This document shows, in pieces, positions 4,110 to 51,266 of a stretch of DNA of 51,266 bases. The stretch covers positions 1-51,266 of the forward strand of contig MQRK01225404.1 in the NCBI GenBank assembly GCA_001938485.1, read 5' to 3'. Under the pieces are notes generated by a model. The model had not been told where the DNA came from and made no database searches. It saw nothing but the letters and a program-made list of their open reading frames with translations. The stretch is from Girardia tigrina (taxonomy: Eukaryota). Position 1 is the stretch's first letter. Each line of letters starts with the position of its first letter. The translations under genes and the position numbers were made by a program.

Positions 4110-4399
4110 TAATCACCAGAAAATGTTATATAAACAAAGATAAACAAAACCATACAAAATTATAATAACCACTTGTTATAACAAAATCAAATATCAAAAC
4201 TTTTTTATCTAATTTAATTTTTGTGGAACAAATAAATGTAGATATATTCCGAATTATAATTGTTATGATTCTCCGTAATCATAAACTGAAATTATAAGGA
4301 AGACAAATTAAAGGAATTCAAAATTGTATTTTTAATAAAATCGGTTTATTTAAACAAGAAATAATTAATATCTTTTAATTTTTTTAAATATATAATTTA

Positions 4400-6387: not shown

Positions 6388-8330
6388 TGTATGAATGTGT
6401 TTGTGATTGTATGTTTGATGATGTGTTTGAAAATAATCCTTTAGAGATGTGTAGATTTGATAATGAGCTTGAAAATAATGATGAAATATGTGCTAGTTTG
6501 GGTACAGAAAATGAGAAAAATATAAACAAGAATACGGAAGATGTACTTATATTACCGAAGTTTAGCATAAATTATAAAGAATTGAAAGGACGACCAAGTA
6601 TAGAGTTCCGAATAAAGAATAAAAATGCCAAGTGACTAATAGATACAGAATCCTGAGTCAATGTTATTAAAGCAGAGATAATCAAAGATATGAAAGATGT
6701 CAGGATCAAAGAAACTAAAGACGTATACAATCTTATGCAAAGGTTTGTGAACGCTTGTTGTTAAATTGTCTTTTGCACCCAACTGCAATTATATTGACAA
6801 AAGCACACCAAAATACAAAGATTTTTTTAGAACATTATAATACGACACAAATTTATCAAAACTTGTCATAACTGGCACATAAACTTCGAAAAACCAGTGT
6901 ATATTAAGTATTTTGTGTGTTTACCCTTATTTTTGAGAAACGAACGAATTCGGTCAGGCATTGAACGGCATTATTTTTTACAATAGTCTGGTGACACTTT
7001 TTGAGTCCAAACATTTTCCACTGCTTTGATCATGTCCTGCAGGGAATTTTGGTACATGGCAGCAACCTGTTTCTTCACCTGGGTTCATGTATTCCTAATC
7101 GGATTGAGATCCGGTGAGTTGCCTGTCCAAGGACCAAAAATTTGGAAGCCTGACTGCGATAACCCCTCTCGAACAGCCTTGACATTGTGGCATGCTGAAA
7201 GAAAAGGCAACACGATCTGAAATATTTTTTTGCAGACAGCAGTGGTTTTTGCTGGCTTTGAGGACCTGAGACCTCAATCAGCTAATCTGCGACGGATTAA
7301 CCATTTGCTGATGGTTTGCAAGTGTTGGGACTGCCTACTGTGAAGTTGCACTGCTGTAGCATGAGGGGTTCCTTTAACCACCTGTAAAATTTCTCTGTCG
7401 TGTCTTTGACTGTTTGACCTTGGACGACCAGATCGAGATCTTGAACATAAGAAACCAGTCTCTCTTTTTCTCTGAACAGTCTGACACACAAATCCAAAAG
7501 AAACTTTACGAGTTGTAGCTATTTGTCGATAAGAAACGCCATGCTTCTGCAATGCTAAAACTGCTGCACACTATTCTGTTGTTAGCTCCTTGCCGTGGAC
7601 AGGCATGATTCTAAAATAAATAATGACAATTTATAACTTGAAAAGTAATAAAAATAAAATATGCATTTAATCTTTTAAATGGTTTATGTATACTTAACAA
7701 GAAATACACAAAAATGCAGTGCAACAACAAAAAGCAGTATAGAAGCAAGCGTTCACAAACTTTGCCCCTGACGTACATTGTTCAAATCCATCATATACTA
7801 ATGAATTACAGGTAATACAAGACAATCCAACTGACGAGGATAGACTGAGGAGAATAAAAGAGCTGTTTGAAAACAAAATTGGAAATAAACTAATGGAACC
7901 TTTAACAGAATATAAAGTAATATTTATGACCGACAAATAGGATATGAGGAAGACGTCGCTGACCAAACACAAGATGGAAACGCATGGAGAACCAGTTTTT
8001 GTGAAACCTTATCGACAACCACAACATTTCGGGGATAAACTGGACGATATTATTAGAAATAATGAAGAAATCGATATTTTCGAAAAGTGCAGATCACCGT
8101 AGAATTTTCTTCTGGTTAGTGTTTGGAAAAAGGAGAAACAGGATTTTCGAGTGTGTGTAGATTTTCTGCAATTGAACAAAATCACCGTTAAACCTGCATT
8201 TCCAATGCCAAATGTTGAGGAAAGGCTGAATACACTAGATGGAGCAAAGTATTTTAGCACAATCGATTTAGAAAACGCATACTAACAAGTGAAACTTGAG
8301 GATGATTTAAAAATCAAAACAGCCTTCATC
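6388..8330 (+). mobile_element. Gypsy protease-RT remnant (related to 4835-5560) interrupted by a Tc1 element
   Basis: LIDTES protease-site relic; ETKDV|HCSN rejoins across the Tc1 insertion; KPYRQP, RVCVDFLQLNK, FSTIDL, KIKTAF. Confidence 0.85.
6728..7773 (-). mobile_element. Tc1-like DNA transposon, internally deleted
   Basis: Imperfect TIRs sharing GCAAAG(G)TTTGTGAACGCTTG, TA on both flanks; HTH with RSGRPR; NSPDLNPI motif; the middle of the DDE domain is missing. Confidence 0.9.
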
Positions 8331-15449: not shown

Positions 15450-17545
15450 AATTGAAATTATTCAAACAACATAATTATAGTGTTAATTTTTTTTAAGTTT
15501 TTTTTTCGATACTTTTTTCTGTTCTAATGTTGTCGATTCACTCCATTGTTTTTTTTAAAAAATTAAATTTCGCATTTTTACACATTTTTTTGTTATTAAA
15601 TTTTGATTGTTAAAATTAAATTAATAAATTGTGATCACTACATCAGCCCCCAACGATAAATGCGGAGCATGATGCGAATTATGGTTTGGTGGGGAAGACC
15701 TGTGAATCGTTGAACTGGACAAATGGTGCAAAGGAGATGGACTGTCGTAATAAAGATGGAGGTTTATTGTTGTATTGGGGGTTATAATTAATGTGGTTGG
15801 TGTTGTGATTGATGTGGTTGTGGATACCTACACGGAACAACGGTTTGGCGATTCTGCAGCTGTTAACGCCATTTACATCATTCGCTACGGTTTTGAGGAT
15901 TGGAACCAGTTCTTCTTGCTTGTGGTGGACGCATCCTGGAGCACAGTCCTTGGCGTCCTTTCTAAATTGGGCGTGCCAGATGCACACTTCGCTAATCTGA
16001 AGTTCAGATTCGATACAGGGAAATATGCACCCCGGTTGATACTTCTTCGCTTCCTTGTCGAATCGACGGTGAAAATAACACATCGTAGCGTTCGAGAATA
16101 AACCGGGTGGGGGTGTCGGTGTCCCTCCATGACATTGAGCGGCTAATGTTCTTCCTGTGTGAATTTGCAATTTCCGAGTCACGGTATTTTTGAACGGCGT
16201 GTGTTTATCTCGCAGGTCCTTATGATTGCGGTTGATGTCGATTGGTGCTTCCTGGATTGTGTGGATGCCAGCAAGAGTCGATGTCACGTGTTGGCTGTCG
16301 GAAATATGATCTTTGAAGATTAGTTTACGATTCCTGCAGTCGACAAGAATGTTAAAATGGTCGAAAAAATCGGCACCTAGAATGGGTTGTGTGACATCGG
16401 CCACAACAAAGGTCCAATTGAAGGTTTGGTTGAGCTGTTTCAATGAAAATGATAATTGAAGCTTTCCAAACGTTTGGACTGTGGANNNNNNNNNNNNNNN
16501 NNNNNNNNNNNNNNNNNNNNNNNNNNNNNNNNNNNNNNNNNNNNNNNNNNNNNNNNNNNNNNNNNNNNNNNNNNNNNNNNNNNNNNNNNNNNNNNNNNNN
16601 NNNNNNNNNNGCATCATAAGTGAATAAACCACAGCAGCTGTCCTCGTCCTTGTCATCTGCTGCTTGGATAGAAGGCGAAACTAGTTTTTTTGGCGGTTCA
16701 TGTTTGCAACCGAGAGCGCATGATCTGGCTTGATCGGCGTAATTGTAATGTCAAATGCACATGTCCGTCATGTCAAGTATTGAGCGGTCGCCTTTCCACG
16801 CGCAGCCGGGTTGGCATTTCTTAGCCTTGGTGCCAAATTTGCGGTGATAATAGCAGAGAGGAGTTTGTTGTTTCGTCGGGTTCTTTCGGTGGTCATGTTG
16901 ACCGTTGGATCTGCAGCGGTGTCGGTTGTCCGATCCCGACTTCAACAATGCGACAGTGGATGCCAGATCAGACATGATGGTGGCCCTCTGAGCTGTCAGT
17001 GCCTCGATTTTTCCGTTCTGTTGTGTCACCGAGTCCGGATTTTCGCATCCGGTGGTGGGTGGGGACAGGTTGAAACAAGTGTCGGAACTGGAGAGCACTG
17101 TTTCGGTAATTTTATCTGCGATTTCTGCCAGTTCTTTCAGATCAGTGGTGCTGGTGGCTGCGAGAATAGCATTGTGAATCAGGGGAAGCGATTGAATGAA
17201 AAATTTCTTCAAAATCGCTGAATCCTGTGTAATCCCTGGTTGGATCAACTCAAGATCGCTGATAACCCGTTGTAAGAATTTTGATGGCTTCAGTATGCCG
17301 ATTTGTTGTGTCTTGAAGTAGTTTTCAAATACAACATCAAATTTTGGCTCGTGAGCCATCATAATTTTTCGCCGAAGTTGGTTATACGGTTCGGCGTGCT
17401 GTATGATTGCTGCAAGATGTGGTGCAAGCATTTGGAGTTGTTCTGCTGGAATCGCACTGAGAAGGTTCTGGAACAGACTGTTCTGCGACTTGATGCGGAT
17501 CGCCTTGAACCTGACATCCATGAGGTCCAACCATACTTTGGGTGA
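15450..17545 (-). mobile_element. Gypsy gag-protease element without RT or integrase; PPT at 15643-15653 and 3' LTR starting TGTAGTG at 15642
   Basis: gag with LKELAEIADKI and CYYHRKFGTKAKKCQPGC; protease WTFVVADVTQPILGADFF; left LTR boundary approximate. Confidence 0.85.
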
Positions 17546-17559
17546 AAAAAAATATAATA

Positions 17560-18600
17560 ACGTTTAAGACTATAGAGAATAATTACACATGGAAAGTGAA
17601 CTGTCTGATTCAAACAACTTATTCTAACTGGAAAAGATTAATACTCGTTTTTGCATGGATTAGACGTTTAATTCATAATTTAAAAAAGGTTCTTCTTAAT
17701 CAAAAATTTGAAAATATCTGTGTAGAATAATACAAGCAGTCAAAAATGGAAATCATAAAAAGACAGTAAATGACTGATTTTAGTGAGGACATTGAGAACC
17801 AAAAACAGGGAAAAGTTATTCCTAAAAAGTTTATACCGATAAAGTTAAATCCTTTTGTAGACCCAAATGGTGTGTTAAAGAGTTGAAGTCGTTTGGATAG
17901 TTCAACTTGGTTATTAAGTGAATAAAAATTGCCGATAATTATAAAACGTAAAAGTTGGTGTACCATGAAATAAATTGTCAAGAAAAACATTATGGTGGAG
18001 TAGACTTCATATTTAGTAGAATTAATCAAGAATTTTGGTTTACTGAAGAACGAGACGTAATTAAATTTAAATCATTTTATAAATCTTAAATCATTGTATA
18101 AAATGTAATAGAGATATAGCTAAGGGAATAAATCAACAAGTCGTGGTTACCTTTGTTTCGACTAGATCCACAGTGGAGAAGTTTACTAAAAGTTGCTAAA
18201 GATTATGGTGACCTCTTGATACCATACTAGGTCGCGGATACCACCGAGAAAAGAGATATCTTTGCTTATTCTCTTGTTTACTCACTTGAGTGGTGCATTT
18301 AGAACTCGTAAAAAATCTGGAGACTGAATTGTTCTTGAGAGCATTTTAAAGATTTATTAACAGAAAGGGAACAGCAAAATTGATAATTAAGGATAACGGA
18401 ACAAACTTTTTTGCAACAGCAAACGATGAAAACATGTTTTGAGTAGTTACTTATTCTCTTAAGAACCACATATACCAAAATAAGATTACTTGACTTCAAA
18501 CAATTTTATCAGAAGTCGAAAATATGCTGAACAGTCTTTCTATTGTGTAATGCGTACTGATGTAGCCTATGATCTGGCGTTAAAACCTTATCATTTTCTA
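17560..18600 (+). mobile_element. Degenerate BEL/Pao pol (integrase region)
   Basis: YSNWKRL, LNPFVDPNGVL, VHLE, FKRFINRKG..DNGTNF and SEVENMLN across several frames. Confidence 0.8.
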
Positions 18601-20290: not shown

Positions 20291-20614
20291 ATTATTCAGA
20301 AATAAACGTATTTCTAGTGTAAAAATACTAAAAAATAAGTTATATATTCTAAAAATAAAGTATTTTAATTTTAATTCAATCGTATTTCTCATACAAACTT
20401 TTTAACATTTTTTTTAATATTTTTAAACATATTTTCATTAAATCGTAAAATATTTTTGATAAATAAAATTTAAAATTAGCGGAAAAATTTAAAGGGAAAA
20501 ATTGACTTTACACAGAAATTGTTTAATTAAGAAGTTATAAATAAAAATAATTATACTTAATTAAATTAAATTAAATTAAATAAATACACTATAATTAAAT
20601 AAATTACAATTCTG

Positions 20615-22520
20615 ATGAATAATTTGATAAATTTGATTTCGATAATTTCGAATGATAAACTAAATGAAAAAAATGAAATCCTGAAAAAAGTTTGTTAATT
20701 TATTAATTTATGATGATTAATTTGCTTTTTCGAAATAGATAGAAGAAACTGCAGGAGTTTCGAGGCATTTAATGGACATTTGTATGTTAAGAGAATTGAA
20801 AGAGGATGTGAAAAGAGAAGCTGCCTCCCTTTTGAAGAAGCACGTTCATCATTATTGGTTTTATGAAAATTATTGTTCAAAGTTCCTTAATGAAACAGAT
20901 AAATTATATATAAAATCAAAGATTATTGATGGAATTGTGAAATCAGAAGGTGTTATTCAAAAAGATCTTCTATTAACCTATGGAAAGATTACCGAAAATG
21001 ACTTTCCAAGAAAATGGAAAGATTTACCAAACGAAATTATCAAAGTTTTTGATAGTAAAAACCAGGAACATTGGATTTCGGGTTATCTGTGCTTGCTAAA
21101 GCCGTTTCAAGTATTAAGTTATCACAATAAATTCAAAAATAGCCCTTTAACAGAAGAAACAATATGTACCATAATGAAGAAACACTTAGAATTTTTCTTA
21201 AGTGATGATTCAGAAAGTGGAATTACTCTACAAAAACATATTTTAAAATTACGTTACTTTTCGTTAAGATTTGAAAAGGACATTCCGAAGGAAGAGTTTC
21301 AATTTTGGGTCCGATCTGCTGGTATCATAAGCATGAGAGTTATCAACGAAAGATCCACACAGTCTATGTTAACGAAGTGTCAGAAATGGGCAGTTAATTT
21401 ACTTTCAAAATTTATTGACACTTACAAACGTCGAACTTTATCACAAAATTCGGATTCGGGGATTTCGGAGTCCTTTCCGACAACTATTATTTTGATATTG
21501 AACAAAATCTGTGATAATTATTCGAACGGAAACTATGCTCATCCAAAAGTGTTTGATACTATCATTAATTGCTATTTATCGTTTATAGAATGCTCTAATT
21601 TACTGAAATATTTGCAACCATATTTGATTAATTTCTTTCAAACTTTCATATTCGGAATTCTCATTGATGAAGAAGTAAAGAACCTTTTATTGCAAAACGA
21701 CCCAGAGAAGTTCTGTCACATCATATACTACAATGCACGGAAATATATATATAATTTGAAAATTACAGAAATGATAATTGTGATCTCTAAATGTGATAAA
21801 ACATTTCTAGAATCTTTATTTCATTTAATCATCAAAAGGTTTCGTTGTCAAGAAATCACACCCTTTACTAAACGTATCTATTTTAATGTCATAGGAACAT
21901 TATCAGAATCATTTTCAAAACTAAACCATTTCACTCGACAACTTGAATTATTTATTCTTGAATTTGTGATTCCGGAACTAAAGTCGTCTGAAATATTGAT
22001 GAGAACCAAAGCTTGCTGGTTAATTAAACAATTGGCTGTCATACATTTACAAGACAAAAGTCTTGTAGAATTATTGGTTTCTGAATTAATGTTTTTATTC
22101 AAACATGATCAAGATTTGGCGGTCATGGTTATTGCAAGCGATGCTTTTGTGAAATTATTAGTAGTCAGTAAGGAAGACAACGAAGCAGCCCTCGATGCAT
22201 TAGTACGTCCAGTTGTCCTACAACTTCTAAAATTAATGAAAATAACACATAACGAAATATTAAATTATATATTCAGCCAAATTACCAGCAATTTCAGATT
22301 AGAAATCGTTTCGTATTCGTTGGATAGAGCGATAAATTTAAAGAAAATAGTGCAAAAAATGTATTGCGAACATTCCAATTTCAATAAAAAAAAATTATTT
22401 GAAATTTATGAAAGCTTGGAAGACAATTGCCATTCTTCATTGTATAAATTGTTAGATATTTTTAAATCAGATCCAAAAATTCTCGAAATCGCCCAACAAA
22501 TTTTTGAAATAAAACTCTGA
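20615..22520 (+). CDS. Importin-7/8-like paralog B; exons 20615-20689 and 20739-22520 (~618 aa)
   Basis: Collinear with paralog A, same 49-nt GT-AG intron; a +1 frameshift near 22511 removes the tail. Confidence 0.85.
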
Positions 22521-22951
22521 CACTGAAAATTCTGCATCTGACACAGATTATTTCACATCAAAACTGCGAAGACAAAACAATGAAAGACAAAACCGCGAAT
22601 AATAATCTCCAGAAAATGGCATATAAATAAAGATAAACAAAAACAGACAATATTATCTTGGCACCTGATATAATGAAATCAAATATAAAAACTTTTTTAT
22701 CTAATTTAATTTTTATGGAACAAATAAATGTAGATATAGCCAAAATTATAATCATAAAAAATTCTATTTGAAAAAGTAAATAATGTCAAAGGATATAAAC
22801 AAAGTATTTTATTAAATACAAATTGTGCTACATAAATATTTTCAGATCATCGGACTTCAGAAAAAAATTGTGTACATGTCCTTGGAGATCATCTAGCTTT
22901 AATGTTCACGTCCATAAGCAGCTTCCGCATAATTATTAGTAGGGGTTAAAA

Positions 22952-23898: not shown

Positions 23899-26340
23899 CG
23901 CCCCCCTGGTGGACACACCAAACGGATCAACCAAAGTCATAGACTTCATGCCATCCAGGAGTCCTCCTGGAGCGTTGTAGTCTTGCCGACTCGTGGTGGC
24001 CTTCATCGGATACCTCATCTGGATAGTTCTCTATTTTGAACTCTCTCCCTTGAGCAATCTGCTACTTCGTTTTCTAGGCTATGTTTTCTTCTATTTGGTG
24101 TAAGACGCAAAAACAAAACAAGCCTCGCCACACCATCATCATTTATCTCAACCGAAACTCTTGAAATGATCTCTTTTACTAGATAAGGTCCACTCATTCT
24201 TCGTCACATCTCTTACTGTCAGACTTCAAATAAACACTGTCGCCGACAACTAGTGGATTACGAGCAACGTCATTATAGTCGTTCTAGCACTCTACCTGTT
24301 TTGGTTCACAGTTAATTCTTGTCCTGACATTGCTGACTCCGGGTTTCCGGGATACATACCCCAACATCAATTCGGACGGGGCTTTCCCTTGTACCCCAGC
24401 AGTGTTGTTGTACCAAAAGACGGTTTCTTCAACCGATTTTCCAGTTCTGTCTACCGATCGTTTTATTGTTCTGTGGACTTTTTCAATTGCACCATTGCTT
24501 TGAGGCCTGTATGCACAAGAATATTCTTGTCTGACTCCCCACTCTTGAAAAAGTTGGTTGATATTGTTGGGTTTTAAAATTATTAAAAATGTCTTTAACT
24601 TCAATTATTCACTTTTATAAAATACAAATCTTTAAATCTTTATCTTTAATCGTTTATTTCTTTTCTTAATTCTTTAATCAGTAATCTTTAACCAATAATT
24701 CTCAATCAATAATCTTTNNNNNNNNNNNNNNNNTCAATAATCTTTTATCTTTTGATCTGACTCCAATTATTCAGAAAGGCCTTCCAACATAAATATATGA
24801 ATAATAAACACAAATTCTTTTATCAAACTTTATTTCAGATAACAAATATCAATAAGACACAATTAATAATAATAATTCAATTCTTTGATGACAGAATACA
24901 AATACAATCAATATTTCGTGCGAGTTAACAGATTACAGTAAAAACTGTTGATCTCCCAAAACGAACGATGATTTGATTACAACTCAAAGATTTTAAAACA
25001 AANNNNNNNNNNNNNNNNNNNNNNNNNNNNNNNNNNNNNNNNNNNNNNNNNNNNNNNNNNNNNNNNNNNNNNNNNNNNNNNNNNNNNNNNNNNNNNNNNN
25101 NNNNNNNNNNNNNNNNNNNNNNNNNNNNNNNNNNNNNNNNNNNNNNNNNNNNNNNNNNNNNNNNNNNNNNNNNNNNNNNNNNNNNNNNNNNNNNNNNNNG
25201 TTTATATAGTAATTTTTCTCAGCCTTGAAAATTGATGAAATAAAACAAAGAGTAAAATATTTATAATTTTTGATGAAGTAAAACAAATGTTTATGATTTT
25301 AATTCCAAGTTTTGTAAAATTAAATATTATTTTATTTGACATTAATGATTTTATTAAAAGAATTATTTAAAAATTTTCCTTTATAAAATTTTATCAAAAG
25401 TGTTCTCATGTATTTTTCGGAACCCTAACAATATCTCGTCCTCGAAAAACTGTTTCATTGCCAGACATGAAAGAATGCGACGGCCCATATTCTGCGATTA
25501 TTTGCCTTAAGTATAAAACAATCTCATTGGATGATTTATTTCTGAGCTACCTCTACACTGTAAATCCAGAGTAACCATCTATCAATGTGAGGTATGGTCG
25601 TCCATTTACATGCGATATGTCGATTGTAATACGTTCCCACAGTTCATTACACATTATTAGTCCCTTCTCCCATATATGCGTTATCGTCGGATCCACACGA
25701 CAGCATCTGTCATAGATTTTAATACAGGCTTCAACCTTCTTTTTCGATACTTCGGATCCCATTTTCACTCTGCACAATTCAAATGTGCGTTGCACACCCT
25801 AGTGACAAAGGTTATGAATTATTTTTGATTTCCTTCTCCAAAATCTGAATTTTGGTGTGACTTACATTCAACTCGTTTGGATAGCGTGTTAATCTATCAG
25901 CTTTGTTATCTGCGGATGCAACAAGCTCAATTGATAAACATAATTCTTCTTCCTTGATGATTTCACGAACACTTTCAAGCCGCCTTCGAATGACTATCTC
26001 ACTTAATGCATGTATTTTCGCATTGTGAGTTTTATTGATTATTGAGTTGAGCCATCCGTACACTGTTTTTGAATCCCCTTTAGGATCAGTCTGCGCGCAG
26101 CCCATTTAACTGCTAAGTTTATTTCCCTGATGGCAGCATCTAATTCGCTACGATTTATGTGATTTAGGTCGTCCTTGGATCTCAACCCAGTGGCGTCTTC
26201 TATGATCTCATTATTCACTTCCAACAAGACTCCAATTGCCACTGAGCTCGCATCAGTCCAGATCGTCATTGGTGAGTCCTGTTTCACTGGCCACCTTCCC
26301 TTACTTTGATCACCATTCTCTATAAAAAACTTTTAATACT
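23899..26340 (-). mobile_element. Gypsy RNase H-integrase remnant, interrupted at ~24575-25420
   Basis: WTDASSVAIG, ADNKADRLTR, WERITIDI..YLTLIDGYS, AYRPQSNGAIEKVH, GPY. Confidence 0.88.
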
Positions 26341-26979
26341 TCTAACCTTCTGTAATACTTCGATTCATACAAGTTCGATCCCAACCAGAAATTGAGACGG
26401 AATATAGAAACGTTTAAGGTAAAATATATTAATTTTGAAAAAAAGTGTTTATTTATTCATTGTAAATTATTAAAAGAAAGGTCATTAGTGTACATATATC
26501 AATTTGTACGTAGATCAAATGGTTAGGGGTTTTTGGTGAAATTAAATTTTTGAATGTTTAAAACGTAAACTCGTATTTATAATTAAAATAAGTACAAATA
26601 ATTTATTTTAAAAATGGCAATTTTAATTGAAAAGTATTTTTACAGTTATTTTTAAATCAAAAGTGAAAATAAATATTTTAGAAAAATAATTTTTTAAAAT
26701 CGAAATTTAAATTGGAAATAATTTTTTTAATTTTTATAATGTTTAAAATCAAAAGAAAACAATAAATAGTTTACGAAATTAATTTTAGCAGTAAATTTTA
26801 CATTGAAAATGATTTTTAATATCTAAAATCAAATTTGAAGATTAACAAAAATTGTTAATAAATTTTTAATTTATTATACAAAACTTTCAAAATAAAATCA
26901 ATGTCATATAATTAATTATTATATTGATATTTATATTTAGAATTTTAAAAAAATGTAGTTTATTCAAATTGAAAATATT

Positions 26980-27790
26980 ATTCCCCATAAATTTGTTTGA
27001 AAAATGTAAGATTCATTTCAATTTTTTTGATGGAATAATTCCAGTTGGTTTATATTGTTTATTGCCAGATAAAACAATAAATACTTACGTTCAATTGTTG
27101 CATGCAATTATGGAATTGATTCCATTGGCTTCTCCTCAAAAAATTTTAGTTGATTTTGAACAAGCAGCAATTAATACACTTAGCAATTCATTTCCAAATT
27201 CTTCGGTAACAGATTGTTATTTTCACTTATGTCAAAATGTCTTACGAAAAGTAAATGAACTGGGGTTAAAAAGTTTTATATGAAACTAATAATCAAATAT
27301 GAGAATATGTTAGATGTCTTCCAGCTCTTGCTTTTGTTCCATTAAATGATGTTGAAGAAGCATTTGACATTCTAGCTGAATCTCAGCCACCAGAAATAGA
27401 AGGTTTAGATGAATTTACTACATTTTTCGAGCATACATATATTCGTGGCAGAAGAAATCGGTGTATATTTTAAAACTCCACGTTTTCATAAAGAGAAATG
27501 GAATCAAAATTTAGCTGGAATTGCAAGAACAACAAATTCTTTCGAAGGATGGTACTATATGCTGCAATCTTTATTTTCTTATCATCATCCAACATGATGG
27601 AAATTTTTAGAAGGAATAAGTAATGACATGCAAAAAAAGCATGTTTTATACAAGGTGCCACATGAGTAATTCAAACTTCGACCAAAATATATCGAGTATT
27701 AAATGAAAGAGTTTCAAGAGCAGTGTCAAATTATGGACGAACAAGCGTATTGATTTATCTTAGATCAATCACATCTGTCTCACTGTTAAA
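26980..27790 (+). mobile_element. MULE transposase pseudogene
   Basis: YCLLPDKT..TY, VDFEQAAIN, CYFHLCQ, LPALAFVP, RTTNSFEGW. Confidence 0.88.
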
Positions 27791-27820
27791 TTAAATTTAC
27801 CTTATTTCTGATGCTTTTAT

Positions 27821-28340
27821 CAGTGCTGCCCAACCAGGCGATCGCGATCTACGAGGCGATCGCGATACGACTTTGGGTAGATCTTCTACTACAGACTAAA
27901 AATGAAAAAAAATTTGTAAAAAAATTTTTTTTTGTAAACACAAATATTAAAAAAATTTAAAACAACGTTCTGTCCTGACTGTCCTCATTATTATTATCTT
28001 TGACAGGATATACGCCTAATTAGGATTCTTTGGTTAGAGACATGTAAACACAATCTTCTCCTTAATATTTAAAAATAAATTCTTAGTCTGTCTTTTTTTT
28101 GTAGCTAATTTGAACAATCAAATATTGTTAATTACTCATATTGTTTTAAATTTATCTTCAAAGTGTGGAAACACGGAATTTTGCAGTAGTGTATCTTGTA
28201 TTATAACATAATGTAAAAACATAGTATGTATTTCTAACTTCCCAATCTTCCCTTAAACTACAACTATGACAACAAGTCGATCGCGACACATTTTTAAGAA
28301 AAAAAGTCGATCTTACGTACACAAAAGTTGGGCAGCACTG
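27821..28340. mobile_element. hAT-like non-autonomous element (MITE)
   Basis: 14-bp perfect TIR CAGTGCTGCCCAAC/GTTGGGCAGCACTG; subterminal CGATCGCG motifs; imperfect TSD (GCTTTTAT/CTTTATAT). Confidence 0.8.
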
Positions 28341-28364
28341 CTTTATATTAATGTGATATTATAT

Positions 28365-28469
28365 AAATGTGATGCAGTTAAGTGTGATGCGGTTAAGTGT
28401 GACCTGGTTAAGTGTGATGTGGTTAAATGTGATGTGGTTAAGTGTGATGCGGTTAAGTGTCTGCACACC
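28365..28469 (+). repeat. 15-bp tandem repeat (about 6.5 units, AAGTGTGATGCGGTT), probably the subterminal repeat of the MULE 3' end
   Basis: Repeat read directly; ends ...GCACACC. Confidence 0.75.
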
Positions 28470-29979
28470 AACAAACATTTTAATTTCAAATTAATCAAAT
28501 TATTAAAAATTATTTAAAAGCTCAAAATTATTATATTTTATGAAAAAGTATATCTTTTATGTTAGAAAAGATTAAATATGTTCCGCAATTGCGTAATAAG
28601 AATAAACGATTATGCAGAGAAATGATGTGTAATTGAAATTGACCCCACTCATTGGTGGGTCATATCTTATTGCGTAATTACGCCATTCTTTGTTATATAT
28701 ATATTGTATTTTGTATTTAAATAAAGTTTTAATAACCGATATATTTTAGTTCTTTTACTGGTGACCACTCCGAAATCAATATCATTATACGGACGAAACG
28801 CGAGGAGAGACAAAAAATGTTCTTCAGTTTACCGCAGAAAACCCAGGAGCTGCTTATTCCGAAGCCAACTTTCTTCGATGAATGCAGAAAGAAATGATGC
28901 CGAAGAATGGATGCAATCCATAAAGGATTTCGTGTCATTGAACCAAATGGAGTTGTCCTTCACCTTTGACATGTTATTAAGAAACGATGTCAAACAACTG
29001 TGGCAAGTGTTTTGCTCAACAAAGCAAACCTTGACGAACGAAGAAACTGAACAGTGATTTACTGATATATTCACAACCACAAAGTCAGTTGTTGAGAAGG
29101 TTACAGAATTGTATGTTTGCAAGCAGAAGCAAAATGAGAGATATCGGGACTATGAAATCAAAGTCAAATAATTGGTAAAAGAAGTTTTTGACAACAAACT
29201 TTCAGTTAGATACATTTCAAGAATGCTTCTTCTGAAAGGAACTCAAAACGACAAATTAAGAGAAGCTTTTATACTCGACCTTGATATGCCTGATGACAGA
29301 CAACGCGATCTAGCTTCAAATTTAGAAAATTCAAATTGTGGGGGATGTGAAGCAAATAAAACTGAGTTATTCAGATATCATGAGAAGAAATACTAAATTT
29401 AATTATTTTAGCCAGGAAAGCACTCTGCGTTTTCACAAGCCACTTTCAATGGAGACAAAGAAGCACATTCATGAAAGAAGAGATTACAATTACCACCAGA
29501 ACAAGCCCGTTTATGAAAATGATAGAAGAAATTATAATGCTGACAGAATGAATCACAACGAAATGGCAAAACGTTTGTTGAAGTTTATTGCAACAACACT
29601 GTACAATTGATGTCAGGGAAAATCAAATCGGAAAAAGAAATTTTAAAACCCGGGGATTGTTTTTGTTGCGGAGAAGCTAATCACAGAAGAAGTGATTGTC
29701 CATTAGGAAATATATGCTTCATCAGCGCAAAAGAAGGTCATTTATTTAAAAATTGCATTATTATTCAGAACTGACAAACCAGAGTTCCAGCGAGAATATT
29801 TTGCGTCCAGGAAGAACAACAAGAATATTTAATAGATATTCATAAAGAAATTAGCCATGATGTTGAAGATTATGACGATGAAAAAAGCCTCCCGTATCTA
29901 TCTCGTCGGTGGGGTTGGGTCAATAGATAAAATTTCAGAGGGGATAGAGAGAGTGTAGTATCGGTAGAAAGAAGAAGTA

Positions 29980-32900
29980 AGTAGGGAGAAAATGGGGTTT
30001 CTCCCTCAATCAATAATTGACCCCCCGTGGGGAGGGTAGCCCATTGCATGGCAACGGTTCCGGTTACCATAGCAACAGTCCCGATCACCCTAGCAACGGT
30101 TCCGATTCATCGCCAGTACCTTGGAAACACTTCTGATAGGTTCCCGGTTCCTTATCAACGGTTTCGGTTCCCATGGCAACGGTAACCAAGGACGTTTTTC
30201 ATTACCCACGGATACAGTGATTCAAGGCGGTTGTAACCATGGTAATGGTTACCGTATCCATAGTAATCATCACCCTATTCATAGCAACCGTAGAAAAAAA
30301 TACTAATCGATCACTGCACAGTGTTCCGATGTGCTAATCGATATTTTTAAAGAACTAATCGATAGTGCACATTGTGCCGCACATTTCTAATATGCTAGCA
30401 CAGTACTTTTTATTTTGTACATGTGCAAAAGTGCAAACATCAATACCTAAATATTTTTAAAAGTACTAGTGTCAAAAATCAATATCATGTGTTTGAATTG
30501 AAACATGTTGTTTGAAAACATGTGTTCTATCTGAATGTGCAATTAGAATTTTTATATATTGATTACTTTTCTCTATTATTAGCATAATATGCAAATTTAC
30601 ACTAAATGCATATCGATTTTAGAGACAGAAGGAAGCAGAATATCAAAAATATGCTCATGCTTTTGAATAGTAACCCATATACGTACATTCATATTCCACA
30701 TCAACATTTTCAAAAAAATGCTGATAAATTGATTTTTTCGAACATTTCTGAAATTCTCAAAAAAAGTGCTCAAAAATCAATTTTTTCGTATATATCTGAA
30801 ACCCCTATGATATATGTATGTTATTTACCATAAAATAATACCTCATGAATCGCCTAATGTACCTCATCAACAATCACAAGTACCATGGTTACCGTAACCA
30901 AGATACATAACCTTTTATATTACATATAAAAACTACATGTATAAAACTCCTATTGTACTTAAAACATGCATCGACATTATACATAACATCTACATAATCA
31001 GCTAAGTACTTGAGTCTAGGTATCAACCATCAAAAGTACCTTGGTTACCGTAACCATGCTACATAACCTTTTAATATGCTACATAACCTTTTTATATATA
31101 AAAACAATCGAAAACACCTTATAAACCATCAACCTTACCTTAAAAACCATGAAAAACACCTTTAAAATCATCGAAAACATGTAAAAACCACCAAAATTAC
31201 ACAAAAAAGTGCAAAAATCCATACTGCACTTGTGCTGCCTAGGCTGCCTAGGCTGCACTGTGCTAATCAATAATACACATGTGCTAATCAATAATGTACA
31301 TGTGCAGCGTGCCTAGGCTTAGTGCAAGTGTTCAAAATCAATAAGTTCACAATTTTACAAAGCGCAATATATTCATGTTTTAATATAATACAGTTTAAAG
31401 TGAGCAGAATGCCCCCTGTGGGGAAGAATGCCCATAGGGTATAGATGCCGTAGGTAGTAAGATATCGAAAATCTGTCTGAACACATGTATCGAAACTTAT
31501 AGGTAAATAGCCGGAATATGATCTTAGATTCTCGAAAAAAAGATACATATATCGATTTTTGAGATGTTGTGTTTTATAGTGTAAAATGAGGGAGAAGTCT
31601 CAGAGGGTATAAAAGGCGAAACAAGCAAAATATCAAAAATCTGTCTGAACACATGGATAGTAACATATATATGAATAGTCAGATTCAATATCAACATTTT
31701 TGAAAAAATCGATACGTAGTGCTTTGTAGAATATATGCACATTATGTGTGCAAATATTATATTATAGATATGTATTATATTATGAAATTATACTATATTA
31801 TCAACCAATATCGTATCAACCATTTAAAACATGGCCTTATCCAAGGTGATATATCATGCATCCATCATGTCAACGTATTACATTCATCATATCAATACAC
31901 AGCTGAACATGTAAAAAATACAGAAAATGCTGAATAATATATAAAATACTATAAGAACTACCTTATCAACAATTACAATCATATTATCAACTATCCAATA
32001 TACATTATCAAACATACCATCAACCATCAAATTTACAATATGAAACATCAAAAATACCTTAACAACCATATCATCAACCATCAACCACCAAAATCACATC
32101 ATGAACAGCCAAATCTACCTTAACAGCAACAAAAAGTGACCCTAATTGTTTCAACCATTACCTTATCAACCTTTCAAAAAGTGAACATTTTAATATACAT
32201 GTGTTACATATATATTATATGTAACATATATACTAAGGCTGTCCAAAAAGTCCTCAGGTGGCCTATAAAAACACACTAATATTTTACCAAATTTAACCAA
32301 ATTTGGACTGAATATTATTCAGACTGTCATAAGTACTGTGTTAAAATTCCAAAGCATGAAATTTGAAACTTACCAAAAAATAATATTATTAACCAACAGA
32401 AAAAATTAGATGCAGCGAATTTAAAAATTTATTTAAAAAAATATTTGAAAAATTTCTTAAGCAACAACATATTCACCATTGTTGTCAATAACCAACTGGC
32501 AATAGTTAAAAAGTTTATTTAGTTGATTTTTTAATGTTTCTGTTGATAAAGAATTAAAAAAGAATTTACAAGCTTCTTCAATTTCTTCATGTGATTTGAA
32601 AACATGATTTTAAAACTTTTCTTCATTTTTGAAAACAAGAATCTGTCACACAGATTAAAATCTGGACTATAGGGCGATTTTTAATTTTTTTCAATTTTTC
32701 TTCTTCCAAAAAAAAGAGTTGTTTCTTTGCTAGAATGAGGTCTTGCATTATCATGCAATCACTTAAGTTCCTTTAGCTTGATGCTGTTAGATCTAAGTTT
32801 CCGCTATTTTTCACCGGTGTCATGAACAAAGTTCACATACGCCTCGGAATCAATCTTTGTACCATATGGTAGTGCTTTTACATTAAAACGTTTGTTGCAG

Positions 32901-33736
32901 GTAAAGGTTACGAAAACAAGAGATTTTTTATCAGTCATCGGTGATGGCTTTATCACTTTTGGTGGAACAGCATTAGAAGGAATCCAAACTTTGTGATCTT
33001 CTTTCTTTCCTCTACCTTGGAAAAAGACTCTGTGATATTACATGACGTATATGCTTTGCGGTGTTAATGCGTTGTTGTTTATTAGCAGCAGAAAGTTTGT
33101 GAGGGACCCAAACAGAGCAAACTTTTTTGTAATGAATTTTTTTACGTAAAATTTTGTGGACTGTATTTTTGCCTAAAAAAAGTTCATTTTCAATATAATG
33201 CACAGACGCATTTAGAGCTTCATCGCCTATTAATGACGGCCTGCCACTTCTTGATGAATCGTCGAATGACGTCCGCTTTTCTTTTTAAAATCAGTCAACC
33301 ATTGTTGAATAGTTTTCAGTGCTAGGTGATTTGCGTCTTCCCATGCCTGCTAAAGTTGCTGAAGAATTTCTGAAGCAGAGAATCCTCTTTTACTTTGAGT
33401 TAGAACAAAAAAACGTTGGCAACATTTATTTGGTTCCATTTTTAAAAACCGCTTGATTTGAATTCGCTGCACTTTTAAAATTTCAATACTTTAATAAAAC
33501 AAAATTTTACTTTTTTTTAATTTTATGCTTTGAAATTTTAACACAGTATTTATCACAGTCTGAATAATATTCAGTCCAAATTAAGTTAAATTTGATAAAA
33601 TATTAGTGTGTTTTAAAGGCCGCCTGAGGACTTTCGGGACAGCCTAAGTATTATATTATTGTTATATATTATATATAATCACTATGTGTATCATCAACTA
33701 TTTACTAAAGAATAATTACAATATCAACCATTAATA

Positions 33737-33745
<9 letters not shown>
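29980..33745 (+). mobile_element. Unclassified insertion with AGTAGGG terminus and X-box array (candidate Polinton/Maverick TIR), copy 1; right end not seen
   Basis: Terminus shared with 50930; degenerate 21-bp units at ~30043-30290; A/C-skewed, internally repetitive non-coding body. Confidence 0.55.
32233..33648 (-). mobile_element. Mariner-type transposon with ~130-bp TIRs and disrupted transposase (ATG at 33439)
   Basis: TA flanks; long TIRs CT(A/T)AGGCTGTCC...; WVPHKL, HDNARPH and PYSPDFNLCD motifs. Confidence 0.92.
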
Positions 33746-33773
<28 letters not shown>

Positions 33774-33823
33774 NNNNNNNNNNNNNNNNNNNNNNNNNNN
33801 NNNNNNNNNNNNNNNNNNNNNNN

Positions 33824-33878
<55 letters not shown>

Positions 33879-34440
33879 AAAAACCAGTTGACTAACTGGA
33901 TACCAAAGATCGAATTTTACATCAATGCAACACATCAAAGTTAAACCTGACGATCACCGTTTGAAATTATTTATGAGTGCAAATTATTTTTACATGGACA
34001 ATTCCAGGACTACAAGCTAAACCACAGTGGTAATATTGCTAAAACAGAATTTTCAAATAAGAAGACTTCAGAAAAGTTGTGGTTCTTGGTTAGATCTAGG
34101 AGGGGAGAGAGAGTTTCCCATGTTGGACAAGAAGTTATAGTAAAAATTGAGCCACATAAGGCAAATAAAATGGGTTCAGATACGAAGGACCTTTTAAAAT
34201 TTAAGAATTTATAAGTTCACATCAGGTATTAGTAGATTTACAGTGTCATCCGAAACCAAGAAGAATAGATTGACTTAAGAAGAATCAAAAAGATTAAAAG
34301 GGTGGAAGTTGGAATAAAATAAATTCCGCAATTACGTAACAAGAATCAGCAATTTCGAACAGAAATGTTGTGCAATTGAAATTGACGCCACCCATTGGCA
34401 GGTCAGATCTTATTGCATAATTACGTCATTCTTTGTTATA

Positions 34441-35260
34441 TGTTATGCCGAATTCGTGAACTGGGCAAAAAAATTGCGGAATTCACAAATTAAAAAATAT
34501 TTTGCCGATTTTGTGAATTCGGCAACAGTTCGCTGAAATTGTATAATTGTCGAATTAATGAACGAGTCAATTTTTGTCAAATTCACTAACTATATGAAAT
34601 TTTTAATTTAAAATGAAAATTTCTTAATTTAAAATGAAAGATTATGTATTTAATATGAACAAAATATCAATTTAATATGAAAAACAATCAAATTAACGTG
34701 AAAGTTTGTATTTAATATAAAAAAAATATGTATTTAATTTGAAAAATTATCAATTTTATATCAAAAAATCTGTATTTAATATGATAAAAATATCAATTTG
34801 TCATTAAAAATTATCAATTTAATATGAAAAAATAAATTAAATAGGAAAAAATCTTAATTTATTATGCAAAATAGACTCCAAATGTAACATTTTATTCATA
34901 GTTAATAAAACGTCTTCCTTGGTGGCAAGATGAATTGCAAACGTTTGCATTTTAAAAGCATTTTATCATAGTAAAATGATATTTTTCATATTAAATTTAT
35001 ATTTTTTCGTATTAAATACAATTTTTATATTAAATCGATATTTTTAAATTAAATTGATATTTTTTCATATTAAACTGATATTTTTTTCATATTTAATCAA
35101 TATTTTATCATATTAAATTGATATTTTTCATATTAAATACAAACTTTGTCATATTAAATACATATTTTTTTCATATAAAATAATCAATTTCAAATATTAA
35201 TTTCATAATTTCATAAAAGTTTTTTTAAAAAGTTGCCTAATTCACGAATTCGGCATAACA
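34441..35260. mobile_element. Foldback MITE with TGT...ACA ends (Ginger-like)
   Basis: 20-bp TIR TGTTATGCCGAATTCGTGAA, TATA on both sides, mirrored ATTTAATATGAAAA repeats in the arms; splits the 3' LTR. Confidence 0.85.
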
Positions 35261-35939
35261 TATACATATCCTAATTTTGTATTTAAATATAGTTTTACTA
35301 ACCGATGTCTTTAATCTTTTACTTTATCAATTATTATTTATTTCAATGTTATTACGACAATTCCTTTCAAAATTTAAATTAAAAAATTAAATTTTTTAAA
35401 AACTAAATATTTAAAGTTTTTTAATTACTTAAATTCTGATCAGCAAAAAGGAAACTAACTCATTTTTTTGTTCTTCTTATTAATTGTTGTTTTAATGAGT
35501 AATTTTCGGAAAAAATGGAATTTTTCGGTAACATAAATTAAAAGGAAAGAAAAATAAAGCCAAAATAATTTTTTTATCTCTTGTAATAATTAAATTTTTT
35601 TAATGAAAAAAATTTACATTTTTACAGGAAATTAAAACAAATATACAAAAATATATAAAGATGTATATATATATTTACATTGATCATGGAACTTAAACAA
35701 TGAGTTCAAAAAGGAAATGTCGGCAAATTTCTACCAAAAATAAAGCCGAAAAAATAACAATTAATGAATTGTTGTTTTTATTTTGTTTTCAAATATTTAA
35801 TTTACAATCGGTCTCCGACAGAAAGACAAAAAAATCCTTTCACCCTCAAAAATTATTTGTATAATATTGGAAATATTTTATTACCACCAGTCAAGTATTG
35901 GAAAATATTTTTAAAAAAAATAAAATAAAATTCATGAAC

Positions 35940-37276: not shown

Positions 37277-37753
37277 TCAGGCCCATAGGAACGCGCCCCA
37301 ATCTTTAATCTCCCAATCGTCAATTGTGGTCCTTAAGAGGACCGTATTTCTTTCGCAATTATTTGAATCAGTTGAGGAACCACCGATGAAATAATCTGGT
37401 TGAAACAGTTTCCCAAGATTCGAATTCAGTAGGTAATCGAGAGTGGTACTATTCAATTCAACTATGACGCTGATCAGCACACACTTTCCATGAATTCCAG
37501 AAGCAAAGTAAACGTAAATTCTACGTAATTGCAAATCACCGTCACTTTCGTAAACAGCAGTGGTCGATTTGACAATGTGTTCGATGATGGTTATTTTACA
37601 AAATGTCGTTCCAATACTGTTTCCAAAACTTTGAAATATTCTCATTAATTCATTTTTAGTAGGTGCTGAAATTTCGTCAGTTTCTTTGATATACAATCTC
37701 CGATCGGGAATTCTTACATGATTATCTTCAAATATCTTCATAAAATAATCCAT
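37277..37753 (-). CDS. Orphan 158-aa ORF (from ATG 37753), function unknown
   Basis: Uninterrupted ORF with globular-looking composition in very AT-rich DNA; no recognisable motif. Confidence 0.5.
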   Translation of the reverse strand: MDYFMKIFEDNHVRIPDRRLYIKETDEISAPTKNELMRIFQSFGNSIGTTFCKITIIEHIVKSTTAVYESDGDLQLRRIYVYFASGIHGKCVLISVIVELNSTTLDYLLNSNLGKLFQPDYFIGGSSTDSNNCERNTVLLRTTIDDWEIKDWGAFLWA

Positions 37754-38022
37754 AATCAGAATGAATAATTTTCTTTGATAATTAAATATATTTAATATTT
37801 TTCTCAAATAATTAAAAAATCGATATCTTCATATATTTTTTATTCGAAATCAAAATTAATTAAAAATAAAACATTTAAACAAATCACATTTCTGTTCATC
37901 ATTTAAACACTTTTTTCTTTACATTTTTCATAAAAACTTTTCTTACATATATACAAAAGTAATTTTAAGTAATAATTTTCTTTATTAATTTTGCAGTAAT
38001 TTTTTACTCTAAATAAATATAA

Positions 38023-43899: not shown

Positions 43900-45241
43900 A
43901 CAGTAACCACCCCTATAAATTGAACATCTGTTAAGAGGAGGAGAAGGATATTTAGTAGTCAGGCGGAAAGTATGCAAAAATCATTCGATGTGTTTGTCTA
44001 TGCAGCGCTTTCCGTTGCATTAATAATGAAGGGAAAAAAACGAAAAAAAACCTGTAGCATTAGTTGGGAATTCGTGAATTAAATAAAAAATATTAGCTTC
44101 ATTACCAGTGGTAAGCTAACATCTGGCAGTGTGATTATTTTCATTTCGACGAACAGCTGGTGAGTTCTTAAATTCACTTTGTTGTCTAGTGCTATTATTT
44201 GCGAGGTGGATTGCCAACATGCTAATCGCGCCCATAATGCCACAGGCATACGGCTAAAGGGGGCATTTGTTAATTTTCAATCCCCGGGATTGCATGCAGT
44301 TTCCATTTACCTTCTGTTAGGAAAAAAAGAATCAAATCGACGAAAAATAAACCCCCCAACAACAAAATGAGTAAAATTTATATTGGACCTGAAATTTATC
44401 CCTTACTACATAAACTCTTCGTTGTTTCGTTCTTTTTTCAGAGAATGATTATAATTTATTAATTGAATCATTTGTTTGGCACTCTATATAGGACTTCGTC
44501 GTTATCATGTCAATCATGACATATTTTAGCCGTTTTCTTTGCATCGGCGATTCAGGAGGAACGACAGACTAAGAGGGTTAGGGTTAGTTCATCTTGATAT
44601 CACGTACTTAAAATCCCATGTGGCTTGTGTACTGTGTGTAGGTAGGCTATTAAATTTACATACCAACTTACATACAACCTCTTCTTTCGCATTCAACTCA
44701 TACGACAGTAAGCCATGTCCCGACTTCATCTCCTAGTCTTAAGGGAGGCCACTCATCACCATAACACTAATAATTACAGCCGAAATCGAACACCTGTTTG
44801 ATGACTGATTAATAACCTAAAACCAGCAGCAATATTGTAGAGAATTCATCAGACAGGCCACTTAATTGCCGCTATTCTGTATAACAAGTCGTGTCTGCGA
44901 TATATTATAATTCATTGGAGTTAGTATGCCTTTACTCTGCACGCCTGTTTCTTACCAGAAACGTCCATTCAAACCACCTCTACAACCACTTAAATTGTTG
45001 ATTGGCTATATTTTAAACAGATTTAATATCTTTTACATTTGACACATTCGCCAAAATATGTCAGCACGAAACGTCATGAAAATATTTTCCCCAATATCTT
45101 AGAGGATATTTTTCATTTTATCTATCTCTCTCACGCTCATTCAGTCACTCTCTTTCCACATTCTCCTCTCTCTCTCTATCTATCTCCATCTCTATTTATC
45201 TCCATCTCTATTGCTCTTCGGTTACTTCTCCACCTTAACTA
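43900..45241 (+). promoter_or_regulatory. Upstream regulatory region of Atoh8/net
   Basis: No TE motifs seen, less AT-rich; E-boxes at 43923, 44118 and 44152; inverted CCAAT (GATTGGCT, ~45000); CT-rich tract 45120-45215. Confidence 0.5.
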
Positions 45242-46015
45242 ATGGCTAAAATCAAAGATTTATCAAACCATTCATCAAAAGATTTATTGAATTATAACAA
45301 CTCAAACAAATTTTCGAAAAAGAAATCTCGTCAAAAAAAACTCATCTCGTCGTCACAGAAAATCATCGAATATTTTCAAGTCGACAAAAATCTTCCCGAC
45401 CAAATGATCCATTTGAATCATTCGCCTTTTGAAAGGTTCGATGTATTAGAGGTATATTCGAATCTTATTCCCGATGATGATTCCTCATCGTCAATCGATT
45501 GTTCCGTTAAATTATCACATAAAAAATCGGTGTTATCATGTTCCGATTCCGACACTAATAAATCGCCGATTGATGATGAAAATACAAATCAAAATATTTT
45601 ATCACAAATGAATACGATCGGCCATCAATCGCGAAGTTCTTCGGAATGTCACAGTTCGATTACTCGGGATAAATCTCCGATTAATCTCGGTTCGAATAAA
45701 AAGAATTACAAAAGTCTAACCAGAGAGCGACGAGTGGAAGCGAACGCTCGCGAAAGGTCGCGAGTCCATACGATCAGTGCCGCCTTTGAAACGTTAAGAC
45801 ACGCCGTTCCCGGTTATTCCAATTCACCGAAATTATCCAAATTGGGAATCTTACGAATCGCATGTTGTTATATAGAATCACTAAATCAACTTCTTCAAAC
45901 CTCAGATAAAATTGATCCTCAATTCAATTCAAGTTTTAGTAAATGTATTCAAAAACTCGCACAAGTTATCGCATCAGAAAGTAAATTGAAAAATAATACT
46001 TCCAGTTTACGTTGA
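45242..46015 (+). CDS. ATOH8: Atonal-related bHLH transcription factor Atoh8/Net
   Basis: TRERRVEANARERSRVHTISAAFETLRHAVPGYSNSPKLSKLGILRIACCYI is diagnostic of Net/Atoh8; C-terminal FSKCIQK helix also conserved; single exon. Confidence 0.95.
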   Translation: MAKIKDLSNHSSKDLLNYNNSNKFSKKKSRQKKLISSSQKIIEYFQVDKNLPDQMIHLNHSPFERFDVLEVYSNLIPDDDSSSSIDCSVKLSHKKSVLSCSDSDTNKSPIDDENTNQNILSQMNTIGHQSRSSSECHSSITRDKSPINLGSNKKNYKSLTRERRVEANARERSRVHTISAAFETLRHAVPGYSNSPKLSKLGILRIACCYIESLNQLLQTSDKIDPQFNSSFSKCIQKLAQVIASESKLKNNTSSLR

Positions 46016-49707: not shown

Positions 49708-50929
49708 AAGTTAGTCACAACATCTCTCTCTCTTTTTAATAGTTCTGGATATAATCTTTCAAATGTTTCGGGTTTCTTCGTAGTCTCCAGGATCTTCGAA
49801 GCGCTTCTTCCAGATTGTTCTCCGCATCTTCAGATTATTCCGAGGGAGTTACCTGAACCGATGTGTAACTAGGAGTTCTAGGAACCAATTTCAAATTTCG
49901 GGTATTTATTTCGAAACCATCATTCATGTCAAAGGTATACGGACCAACTACTTTAACCAATCGCCGCTTATTGCCATTAGGTGTAATCACTTCATCACCA
50001 ACTTTGAATGGATTCTTTTGCAAAGGTTTTCGGCGATTATTAGCATAGTTTGCTTGAGCTCGCTGTTTATAGAGTAAAGTGAAATACTCTCGCGATGGGT
50101 CTTTATTTCCAGCTACATCCAAACATCAAATAATGTGGAGATTTTTCAGTTGTATTATGTTTGGTGGCTCCATAATTCCGGACATACTCCCACAAATCAT
50201 TTTAAACTTTCTCCAATGTTACAAATCCTTTGCTCTTTTCTAGCATTTTTGTTATGTTTCTCTTCATCCGTTCCACAAGCCAATTTGCTTGATGGTTGTA
50301 AATAGAAGAACACTTATGCTGAATACCATGATTAATTAAATATTCACTGAAAACATGAGAGATAAACTGTGCACCATTGTCACTGACAATACAAGTAGGT
50401 AGTCCGAAGATGGAAAAAATTCTTCCAAAAATGTATGATTTCTAGTTTCGTAGCTCGACGAACCACACGGTAGGCGGGGACTTTAGTAAAATAATCTACT
50501 ACAAATAAAATGTAGAAGGACATCCGCTCGTTTCATAATTTTGGCCTTTAATATCAATAGCGATCTGCTTCTATGATTCTAGGACCTGGTTTATCAATTG
50601 TACAGGGCTTTCTTGATAAACCTGCTGGCTACATCCACAATTATGAGGAGCTTCATCCACATCAGTGTTGAGTCCTGGCCACCAATATAATTCTCGAATA
50701 CTTTGTTTGCACTCTGTGGCACCTTGATGGCCTTCGTGAGCCAAATCAATGATTTTGTTTCTTAATCCGGAGGGAGTGATTATTCGCTCTCCTCTCATGA
50801 TAAAATCATCAACAACACTGAATTCATTAAACACATTCAAAAAAGGTTTTATTTTTGGATTCTTTTTACAAGCTTCTCCACCCTTGTCAATGTAGGTCCT
50901 AAGTTCTTGTAATATATCTTTGATAATAA
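49568..50929 (-). mobile_element. Gypsy integrase remnant with PPT and short 3' LTR (49568-49722)
   Basis: LAHEGHQG..YWWPG, GLPTCIVSDNGAQF, YNHQANW, GPY; minus-strand AAAAAGAGAGAGAGA then TGTTGTG...ACTACA. Confidence 0.88.
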
Positions 50930-51266
50930 AGTAGGGGAAAAATGGGGATTCTCCGGTAGACCCCCCCCCCATCGCCATAGGCCGTTGCCATGGTTACGTA
51001 ACCAGTTACCACGCGGGGTTGCCATGGAAACGGTCGCGATCACCTTAGCAACGGTCGCGGTTACCATGGCAACGGTCGCGATCACCCTAGCAATGGTCGC
51101 GGTTACCATGGCAACGGTCGGGTTACCACGGCAACGGTCGCGATTACCTTAGTTACGGTCGCGGTTACCATGGCAACGGTCGCGATCACCTTAGTTACGA
51201 CCGCGATGTCCCACGGGGGGTTACCGTTACCACGGCAACGGTCGCGATTACCTTAGTTACGGTCGC
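50930..51266 (+). mobile_element. Unclassified element terminus with 21-bp X-box tandem array, copy 2 (runs off the window)
   Basis: AGTAGGGGAAAAATGGGGATTCTCC, then units of GTTACCATGGCAAC or ATCACCTTAGCAAC plus GGTCGCG. Confidence 0.7.

Follow-up and report, generated by a model that had tools for sequence, protein, structure and literature searches.

Tandem modules with candidate RFX X-box sites at a mobile-element end in Girardia tigrina

Element ends with repeated binding sites

A mobile element packed with repeated sites for a single host transcription factor has a precedent in the Helitrons of Caenorhabditis, which carry HSE clusters and bind HSF-1; HSF-1 drives the transposase of Helitron1_CE through embedded HSEs and rewires nearby genes (PMC6927752). 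The element end described here, found in a 51,266-nt stretch of Girardia tigrina DNA (the window, i.e. the whole sequence analysed), would likewise be part of a DNA element with such sites, but the candidate factor is RFX, and the carrier need not be a Helitron. A second point of comparison is the HERV-K(HML-2) LTR at 3q12.3, whose promoter is supported by a predicted RFX3 site present at insertion (PMC6102855). There, a single predicted RFX site resides in a retroviral LTR, whereas here the sites form a tandem array. An earlier note on this locus knew of no description of such an arrangement. Dense arrays for one factor are on record for the HSF-1 Helitrons; of X-boxes arranged in tandem at the end of a transposon, we found no report among the literature matches listed, with thin coverage of subscription journals and Repbase reports. 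The element family itself may already be catalogued.

Repeats at element ends may also serve the element's own proteins. In hAT elements such as Ac, Tol2, Tag1 and Herves, the transposase usually binds short motifs that are repeated beside the TIRs (PMC3143072), and the TIRs of Galileo carry multiple transposase sites (PMC3688188). Our array shares with the hAT subterminal repeats that short variant motifs are repeated just inside the end, but it differs in that a 14-bp dyad stands in strict tandem and matches the consensus of a host factor. HINEs are described with internal tandem repeats, a 3' stem-loop, palindromic subTIRs and insertion in TT (PMC4067079, PMC7492417), the hairpin of HINE-Mo residing 8-35 bases from the end (PMC4067079). 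The ends of Mavericks read AG or AGT, with (AGT)2 or (AG)3 in vertebrates, their TIRs measure 46-1447 bp and their gene modules are oriented inward (PMC8097293); AG termini of Polintons/Mavericks are also given in PMC6839031. Putative transcription factor sites have been noted in C. elegans Polinton-derived repeats (PMC8097293, PMC6839031, bioRxiv 10.1101/2024.01.15.575659), and our searches brought up no RFX array in Polintons/Mavericks.

Two copies of one element end

A conserved 25-bp element terminus is present at positions 50930..50954 on the plus strand (copy A), as had been described before, with an exact junction uncertain by 1-3 bases. It recurs on the same strand at 29980..30004 (copy B, overlooked in the earlier note), where 22/25 bases are the same. 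These two matches in the whole window compare with a chance mean of 0.01 and, as the second copy shares the terminus at an unrelated junction, the identification as a mobile-element end is borne out. Looking for further copies of the terminus thus yielded a diverged one at 29980; an opposite end, a TSD, a coding core or any element gene were not found within the window, in which copy A runs off the edge and copy B ends in a gap. An inverted 13-mer partner of the terminus with up to 2 mismatches does not occur in the window. Candidate opposite ends at 44393 and 36417 (inverted 15-mers, up to 3 mismatches) are isolated, one per copy, and were taken as chance. A 12-bp inverted match between 30020-30031 and 51209-51220 joins different copies and sits in an array slot.

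Copy A cuts a broken LTR-retrotransposon pol/integrase remnant (49800..50929, minus strand) with Pfam matches to Integrase_H2C2 (residues 53-98, E 2.6e-11) and to rve (E 5.9e-6, below its curated cut-off). Domain order suggests a remnant of the Gypsy type. Of the Gypsy integrase that was thought to be interrupted at 50930, an integrase-bearing pol remnant is indeed cut, but not inside the catalytic core: about 52 codons separate the insertion point from the zinc-binding domain of the integrase, which is situated downstream.

Inside the terminus of copy A, an X-box-like core that fits on the minus strand (50984-50997) overlaps a perfect 12-bp palindrome GGTTACGTAACC (50992-51003) which we take to be PAR-bZIP-like; together the two span 50984..51003. 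The array of 21-bp modules begins 88 bp inside the element end and extends on the plus strand over 51018..51266, where it runs off the window. We parsed 11 cores of 14 bp, six of type A and five of type B, which alternate and start at 51018, 51039, 51060, 51081, 51102, 51122, 51143, 51164, 51185, 51226 and 51247, in line with the roughly 11 units of 14-bp core and 7-bp spacer reported originally. The spacer reads exactly GGTCGCG in 8/11 units; of the other three, one is 6 bp long, another is mutated and the last is truncated where the window stops; CAACGG spans the border between core and spacer in 6/11 units. Core-to-core steps measure 21 bp in eight of ten cases, 20 bp once and 41 bp once, the latter across a degenerate slot at about 51206. 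The 21-bp period and its 42-bp higher order were thus correctly seen, and a further order of 104 bp had been overlooked; Tandem Repeats Finder also gives 62.

In copy B, modules are found in register with those of copy A at 30021..30260 on the plus strand, at an offset of 20997. Good cores are retained at 30063, 30084 and 30167, and decayed ones at 30021, 30042, 30146 and 30233. The pairs 51060/30063, 51081/30084 and 51164/30167 each agree in 13/14 bases at one ungapped offset, and both the A/B pair and the 104-bp spacing are common to the two copies. Between terminus and array, copies A and B do not align. As the motifs are common to two copies that differ completely in this part, the terminus and the A/B module pair are ancestral and have outlasted their surroundings. 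The uniform array of copy A has probably been homogenised since. The feature is real, and it is better anchored than first reported because the diverged second copy keeps the motif pair.

What remains of copy B occupies 30261..33735 on the plus strand, an extent that we infer, and is non-coding with local duplications. About 2.3 kb after the array are non-coding, and none of the six frames of 29980-32237 matches Pfam. Two GGTTACCGTAACC palindromes at 30887 and 31043 correspond to the arms of GGTTACGTAACC with one extra central base, an inward-facing TATA-like site is located at 31608, and the copy terminates with (AT)n and a gap in the assembly. Duplications of 20-21 bp at 31056, 31099 and 31259 carry no X-box. 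An unrelated TIR element at 32208-33676 (arms 87% identical, TA flanks; about 32233-33648 when delimited as the interruption) is inserted in the copy; it is mariner-like by eye and its two ORF pieces are without Pfam match.

The host of copy B is a decayed, internally deleted LTR element (28571..34441, plus strand) with direct repeats at 28571-28698 and 34314-34441 that are 83.6% identical. None of its six frames has a Pfam match; positions 33900-33998 match another integrase-like remnant at the window start (tblastx E 2.4e-5), and a zinc-finger remnant at the copy B junction was recognized by eye. We rejected the possibility that in copy B the array belongs to the LTR of the flanking Gypsy itself, because the direct repeats of that element lie at 28571 and 34314 and because the same end cuts the pol remnant in copy A. 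The 3' direct repeat of this LTR element is interrupted by a foldback-like element at 34437-35264, each inverted arm of which contains AT-rich 21/43-bp tandem repeats.

Three further candidates were discarded: a protein-coding repeat, as the open frame across the array has neither a Pfam match nor a homologue among 231 candidates; a structured RNA, with no Rfam match in the window; and a prokaryotic or phage origin, with copy A unmatched in 50,697 phage and 72,556 plasmid records and the array and terminus patterns without match in GTDB genomes.

RFX consensus matches and the possible function of the modules

RFX has roles in cilia, and an X-box match by itself does not predict regulation (PMC2375033). 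We scored the cores with consensus strings published in the same paper, in Table 2 of which ATCACC left halves occur in a conserved X-box of a Drosophila RFX-regulated gene. Allowing up to 2 mismatches, the strict X-box GTTRCCATGGYAAC has 10 matches in the window, seven in copy A and three in copy B, against a shuffle mean of 0.33, and none of 100 shuffles reaches 10. All six A-type cores are X-box-like, fitting RYYNYY-n-RRNRAC; five of them fit RTNRCC-n-RGYAAC and three the strict X-box. Among the five B-type cores of copy A, only that at 51039 fits a published RFX consensus, and the other four fail every consensus tested, because three carry GTTAC for GCAAC and one ends in T. The B-type core of copy B at 30084 does fit. 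Of the cores described earlier as canonical X-boxes or matches to a relaxed consensus, 3/11 conform to the strict string and 5/11 to the relaxed string used there, and the assignment of the B-type to the relaxed consensus, and with it an X-box in each unit, is not supported. With one B-type core in five fitting, the interval between good sites is mostly 42 bp.

The string RTNRCC-n-RGYAAC has 12 strand matches in copy A, two in the head of copy B and none elsewhere in the window, and the chance of encountering it in a shuffled 21-mer is P 0.0006, a value uncorrected for other factors or repeats that could have matched. Perfect X-boxes make up 3/11 cores and occur in 0/50,000 shuffled units. Four positions (1, 3, 7 and 9) distinguish the A core from the B core found at 30084, and RTNRCC-n-RGYAAC permits all four differences. 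As a partly independent test, substitutions were evaluated over 14 cores, namely the 11 of copy A and the three best of copy B, the latter picked as recognizable, leaving out 50984, 30042, 30146, 30233 and the degenerate slots. In this set, RTNRCC-NN-RGYAAC permits 8/12 distinct substitutions against 13/42 possible ones (P 0.003, rising to 0.014 under a 4-fold transition bias), the loose RYYNYY-n-RRNRAC permits 10/12 (P 0.004, or 0.077 with transition bias) and GYTRYY-NN-RRHRAC 7/12 (P 0.059, or 0.37 with transition bias). The A cores and the intact B core read well as putative RFX sites, and the pattern of substitutions lends moderate support to RFX sites as the target of selection.

Cores and spacers were also compared for conservation. 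For the three best units, 39/42 core and 14/21 spacer positions are conserved (P 0.012), a comparison that is circular as these units were chosen for their cores; the figures are 54/70 and 24/35 with five units (P 0.35) and 69/126 and 38/63 with all nine aligned slots (P 0.53). The cores thus have no clear lead over the spacers, and the outcome varies with the selection of units. Between the copies, the block that changes least is CAACGGT (module positions 11-17); it reaches from the right half-site into the spacer, and we take it to resemble a Myb site. CAACGG persists in copy B at two places that have lost the X-box (30052 and 30156).

The explanation that we place first, with a little less than even confidence, is an RFX-type enhancer of the element's own that was lengthened by slippage. 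The first 300 bp or so are built from a 21-bp module whose X-box-type core runs with its right half into a Myb-like hexamer, and in these cores the element would have host RFX sites for its own use. RFX has a role in sperm, and an end-proximal enhancer of this kind might drive element genes, or help replication, in RFX-rich cells, plausibly in the germ line. Slippage and homogenisation may then have lengthened the copy A array and spread the damaged B cores. Several observations speak against such an enhancer: the four B cores of copy A that fail all consensuses have been amplified nevertheless, the substitution test weakens under transition bias with two of the three strings, conservation does not favour cores over spacers across five units or nine slots, CAACGG has outlived the X-box at two places in copy B, TATAAAAG occurs at six other places in the window, and there are only two copies in this window.

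Alternatively, the modules could be subterminal repeats to which a protein of the element itself binds, namely a transposase of the hAT, CACTA, Harbinger or P type, the likeness to X-boxes being incidental. In favour of this, the array starts 41-88 bp from the end and fades within about 300 bp in copy B. The steadiness of CAACGGT across copies also agrees with this explanation, as does YAACGG, which is found eight times in copy A (both orientations) and four times in the head of copy B compared with 0.44 per kb elsewhere; both resemble the Ac transposase motif AAACGG. A TAGGG start is hAT-like, and a TAGGG reading of the junction begins two bases in, but it requires that both targets ended in the same three bases by chance. 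The 14-bp dyad with its perfect X-boxes and the variation at positions where the RFX consensus is degenerate would hardly arise by accident, and we regard transposase repeats as rather unlikely, though they are the foremost alternative to an RFX-type enhancer.

Helentron-like features, helical phasing and the identity of the carrier

It is also conceivable that the tandem DNA is a passenger of a Helentron/HINE-type rolling-circle element, viewed here from the 3' end (minus strand), and that its amplification involved no selection for binding. Like HINE/DINE-1 Helentron derivatives, the element has a non-coding body with tandem repeats and junctions that are compatible with insertion in TT, both copies reading TT on the minus strand. 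Copy B moreover contains a perfect 9-bp hairpin near its end (29983-30006; z -2.6, 3/200 shuffles as good) and a near-palindrome 41 bp inside the end. In contrast, copy A keeps the terminal sequence and not the hairpin (z -0.79, 38/200 shuffles), the hairpin of copy B lies 3 bases from the end and thus nearer to it than in HINE-Mo, paired subTIRs, in particular a 5' subTIR end, were not found in the window, and the motifs outlasted the DNA between them. As the end keeps sequence but not structure, a terminus read by a protein is favoured over a Helentron hairpin, and amplification of a mere passenger appears quite unlikely.

The earlier note had proposed in its strong form a selected, phased array that aligns RFX on one face of the DNA and acts as an RFX sink or as a portable host enhancer for cilia or sperm programmes. 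The geometry holds at 10.4 bp per turn, where all 11 cores of copy A and six of the seven listed slots of copy B fall within 14 degrees; at 10.5 bp per turn, the cores of copy A drift to -69 degrees. The 104-bp spacing is moreover preserved in both copies. However, this geometry follows from the 21-bp period alone. Among 34 merged tandem loci in the window (period at least 10), seven include a 21-bp period and five of these are without X-box, two of the five being situated inside copy B and two being arms of one element. Selected phasing is therefore not supported, the period being common in this window, and phasing is better taken as a by-product of the 21-bp unit length. The cores at 50984 and 30233 are out of phase, 4/5 B cores are damaged, and both copies reside inside dead retroelements and not at promoters; the distance from copy A to an Atoh8-like gene (45239-46015) is about 5 kb, and nothing points to a connection between them. 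We consider a selected sink or host enhancer very doubtful. The Atoh8/net-like bHLH ORF itself has named relatives in molluscs, insects and other invertebrates, none of them close.

As to the carrier, a DNA-type mobile element of which one end is seen is most likely. Our tentative preference, held with less than even confidence, is for a Polinton/Maverick TIR. Both copies can be read with an AGT start, given the uncertainty of 1-3 bases at the junction, and AGTAGG agrees with the vertebrate Maverick motifs in 5/6 bases. The AG/AGT start, if so read, the long non-coding end region and the inward orientation are shared with Polinton/Maverick TIRs. The element differs by its AGTAGG end, and a second TIR, a 6-bp TSD or a Polinton gene were not seen in the window; pPolB, integrase, ATPase and capsid genes are absent from the six frames of 29980-32237 by Pfam, and the interior of the element lies outside this view. 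A Helentron/HINE origin is unlikely, and the same applies in equal measure to a hAT or other TIR element. Still less probable is a long LTR: the TATA-like site at 31608 is present, but a paired repeat was not found, and neither 29980-32235 nor 33645-33740 contains AATAAA on its plus strand.

Should RFX read the array, the locus would illustrate a way in which selfish DNA can tie its active phase to germ-line or ciliated cells, and RFX would join the few host factors whose clustered sites are spread by transposons, comparable to HSF-1 in Caenorhabditis Helitrons. RFX motif enrichment in this genome may then stem from repeats. If the carrier is a Polinton, it would provide a first handle on what switches such virus-like elements on; if the sites are transposase repeats, this is an ordinary element end. 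At the far end of speculation, and with little probability in our view, stands a Polinton/Maverick family that carries an array of overlapping RFX and Myb sites at integer helical turns in its terminal repeat, such that a spermatocyte or multiciliated programme would switch on its transcription or replication and scattered copies would act as portable RFX enhancers or sinks.

The window contains further elements and open frames. A small element at 27830-28342 has short inverted ends with repeated GATCGCGA motifs inside, is hAT-like by eye and is followed by a 15-bp tandem at 28364-28460. Remnants at 26912-27800, 7274-7570, 24284-26332 and 15679-17563 comprise a MULE transposase (E 1e-8), a Tc3-type HTH and LTR-retroelement fragments. 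A 183-aa open frame at 37277-37828 has no Pfam match and no homologue among longer proteins. CpG observed/expected for the whole window is 1.09, and this lack of CpG depletion suggests little DNA methylation in the host. Two long, intronless ORFs of the importin-beta family at 1828-4260 (661 aa; IBN_N E 8e-4) and 20450-22752 (593 aa) are 85% identical and possibly represent retrogenes or a local duplication.
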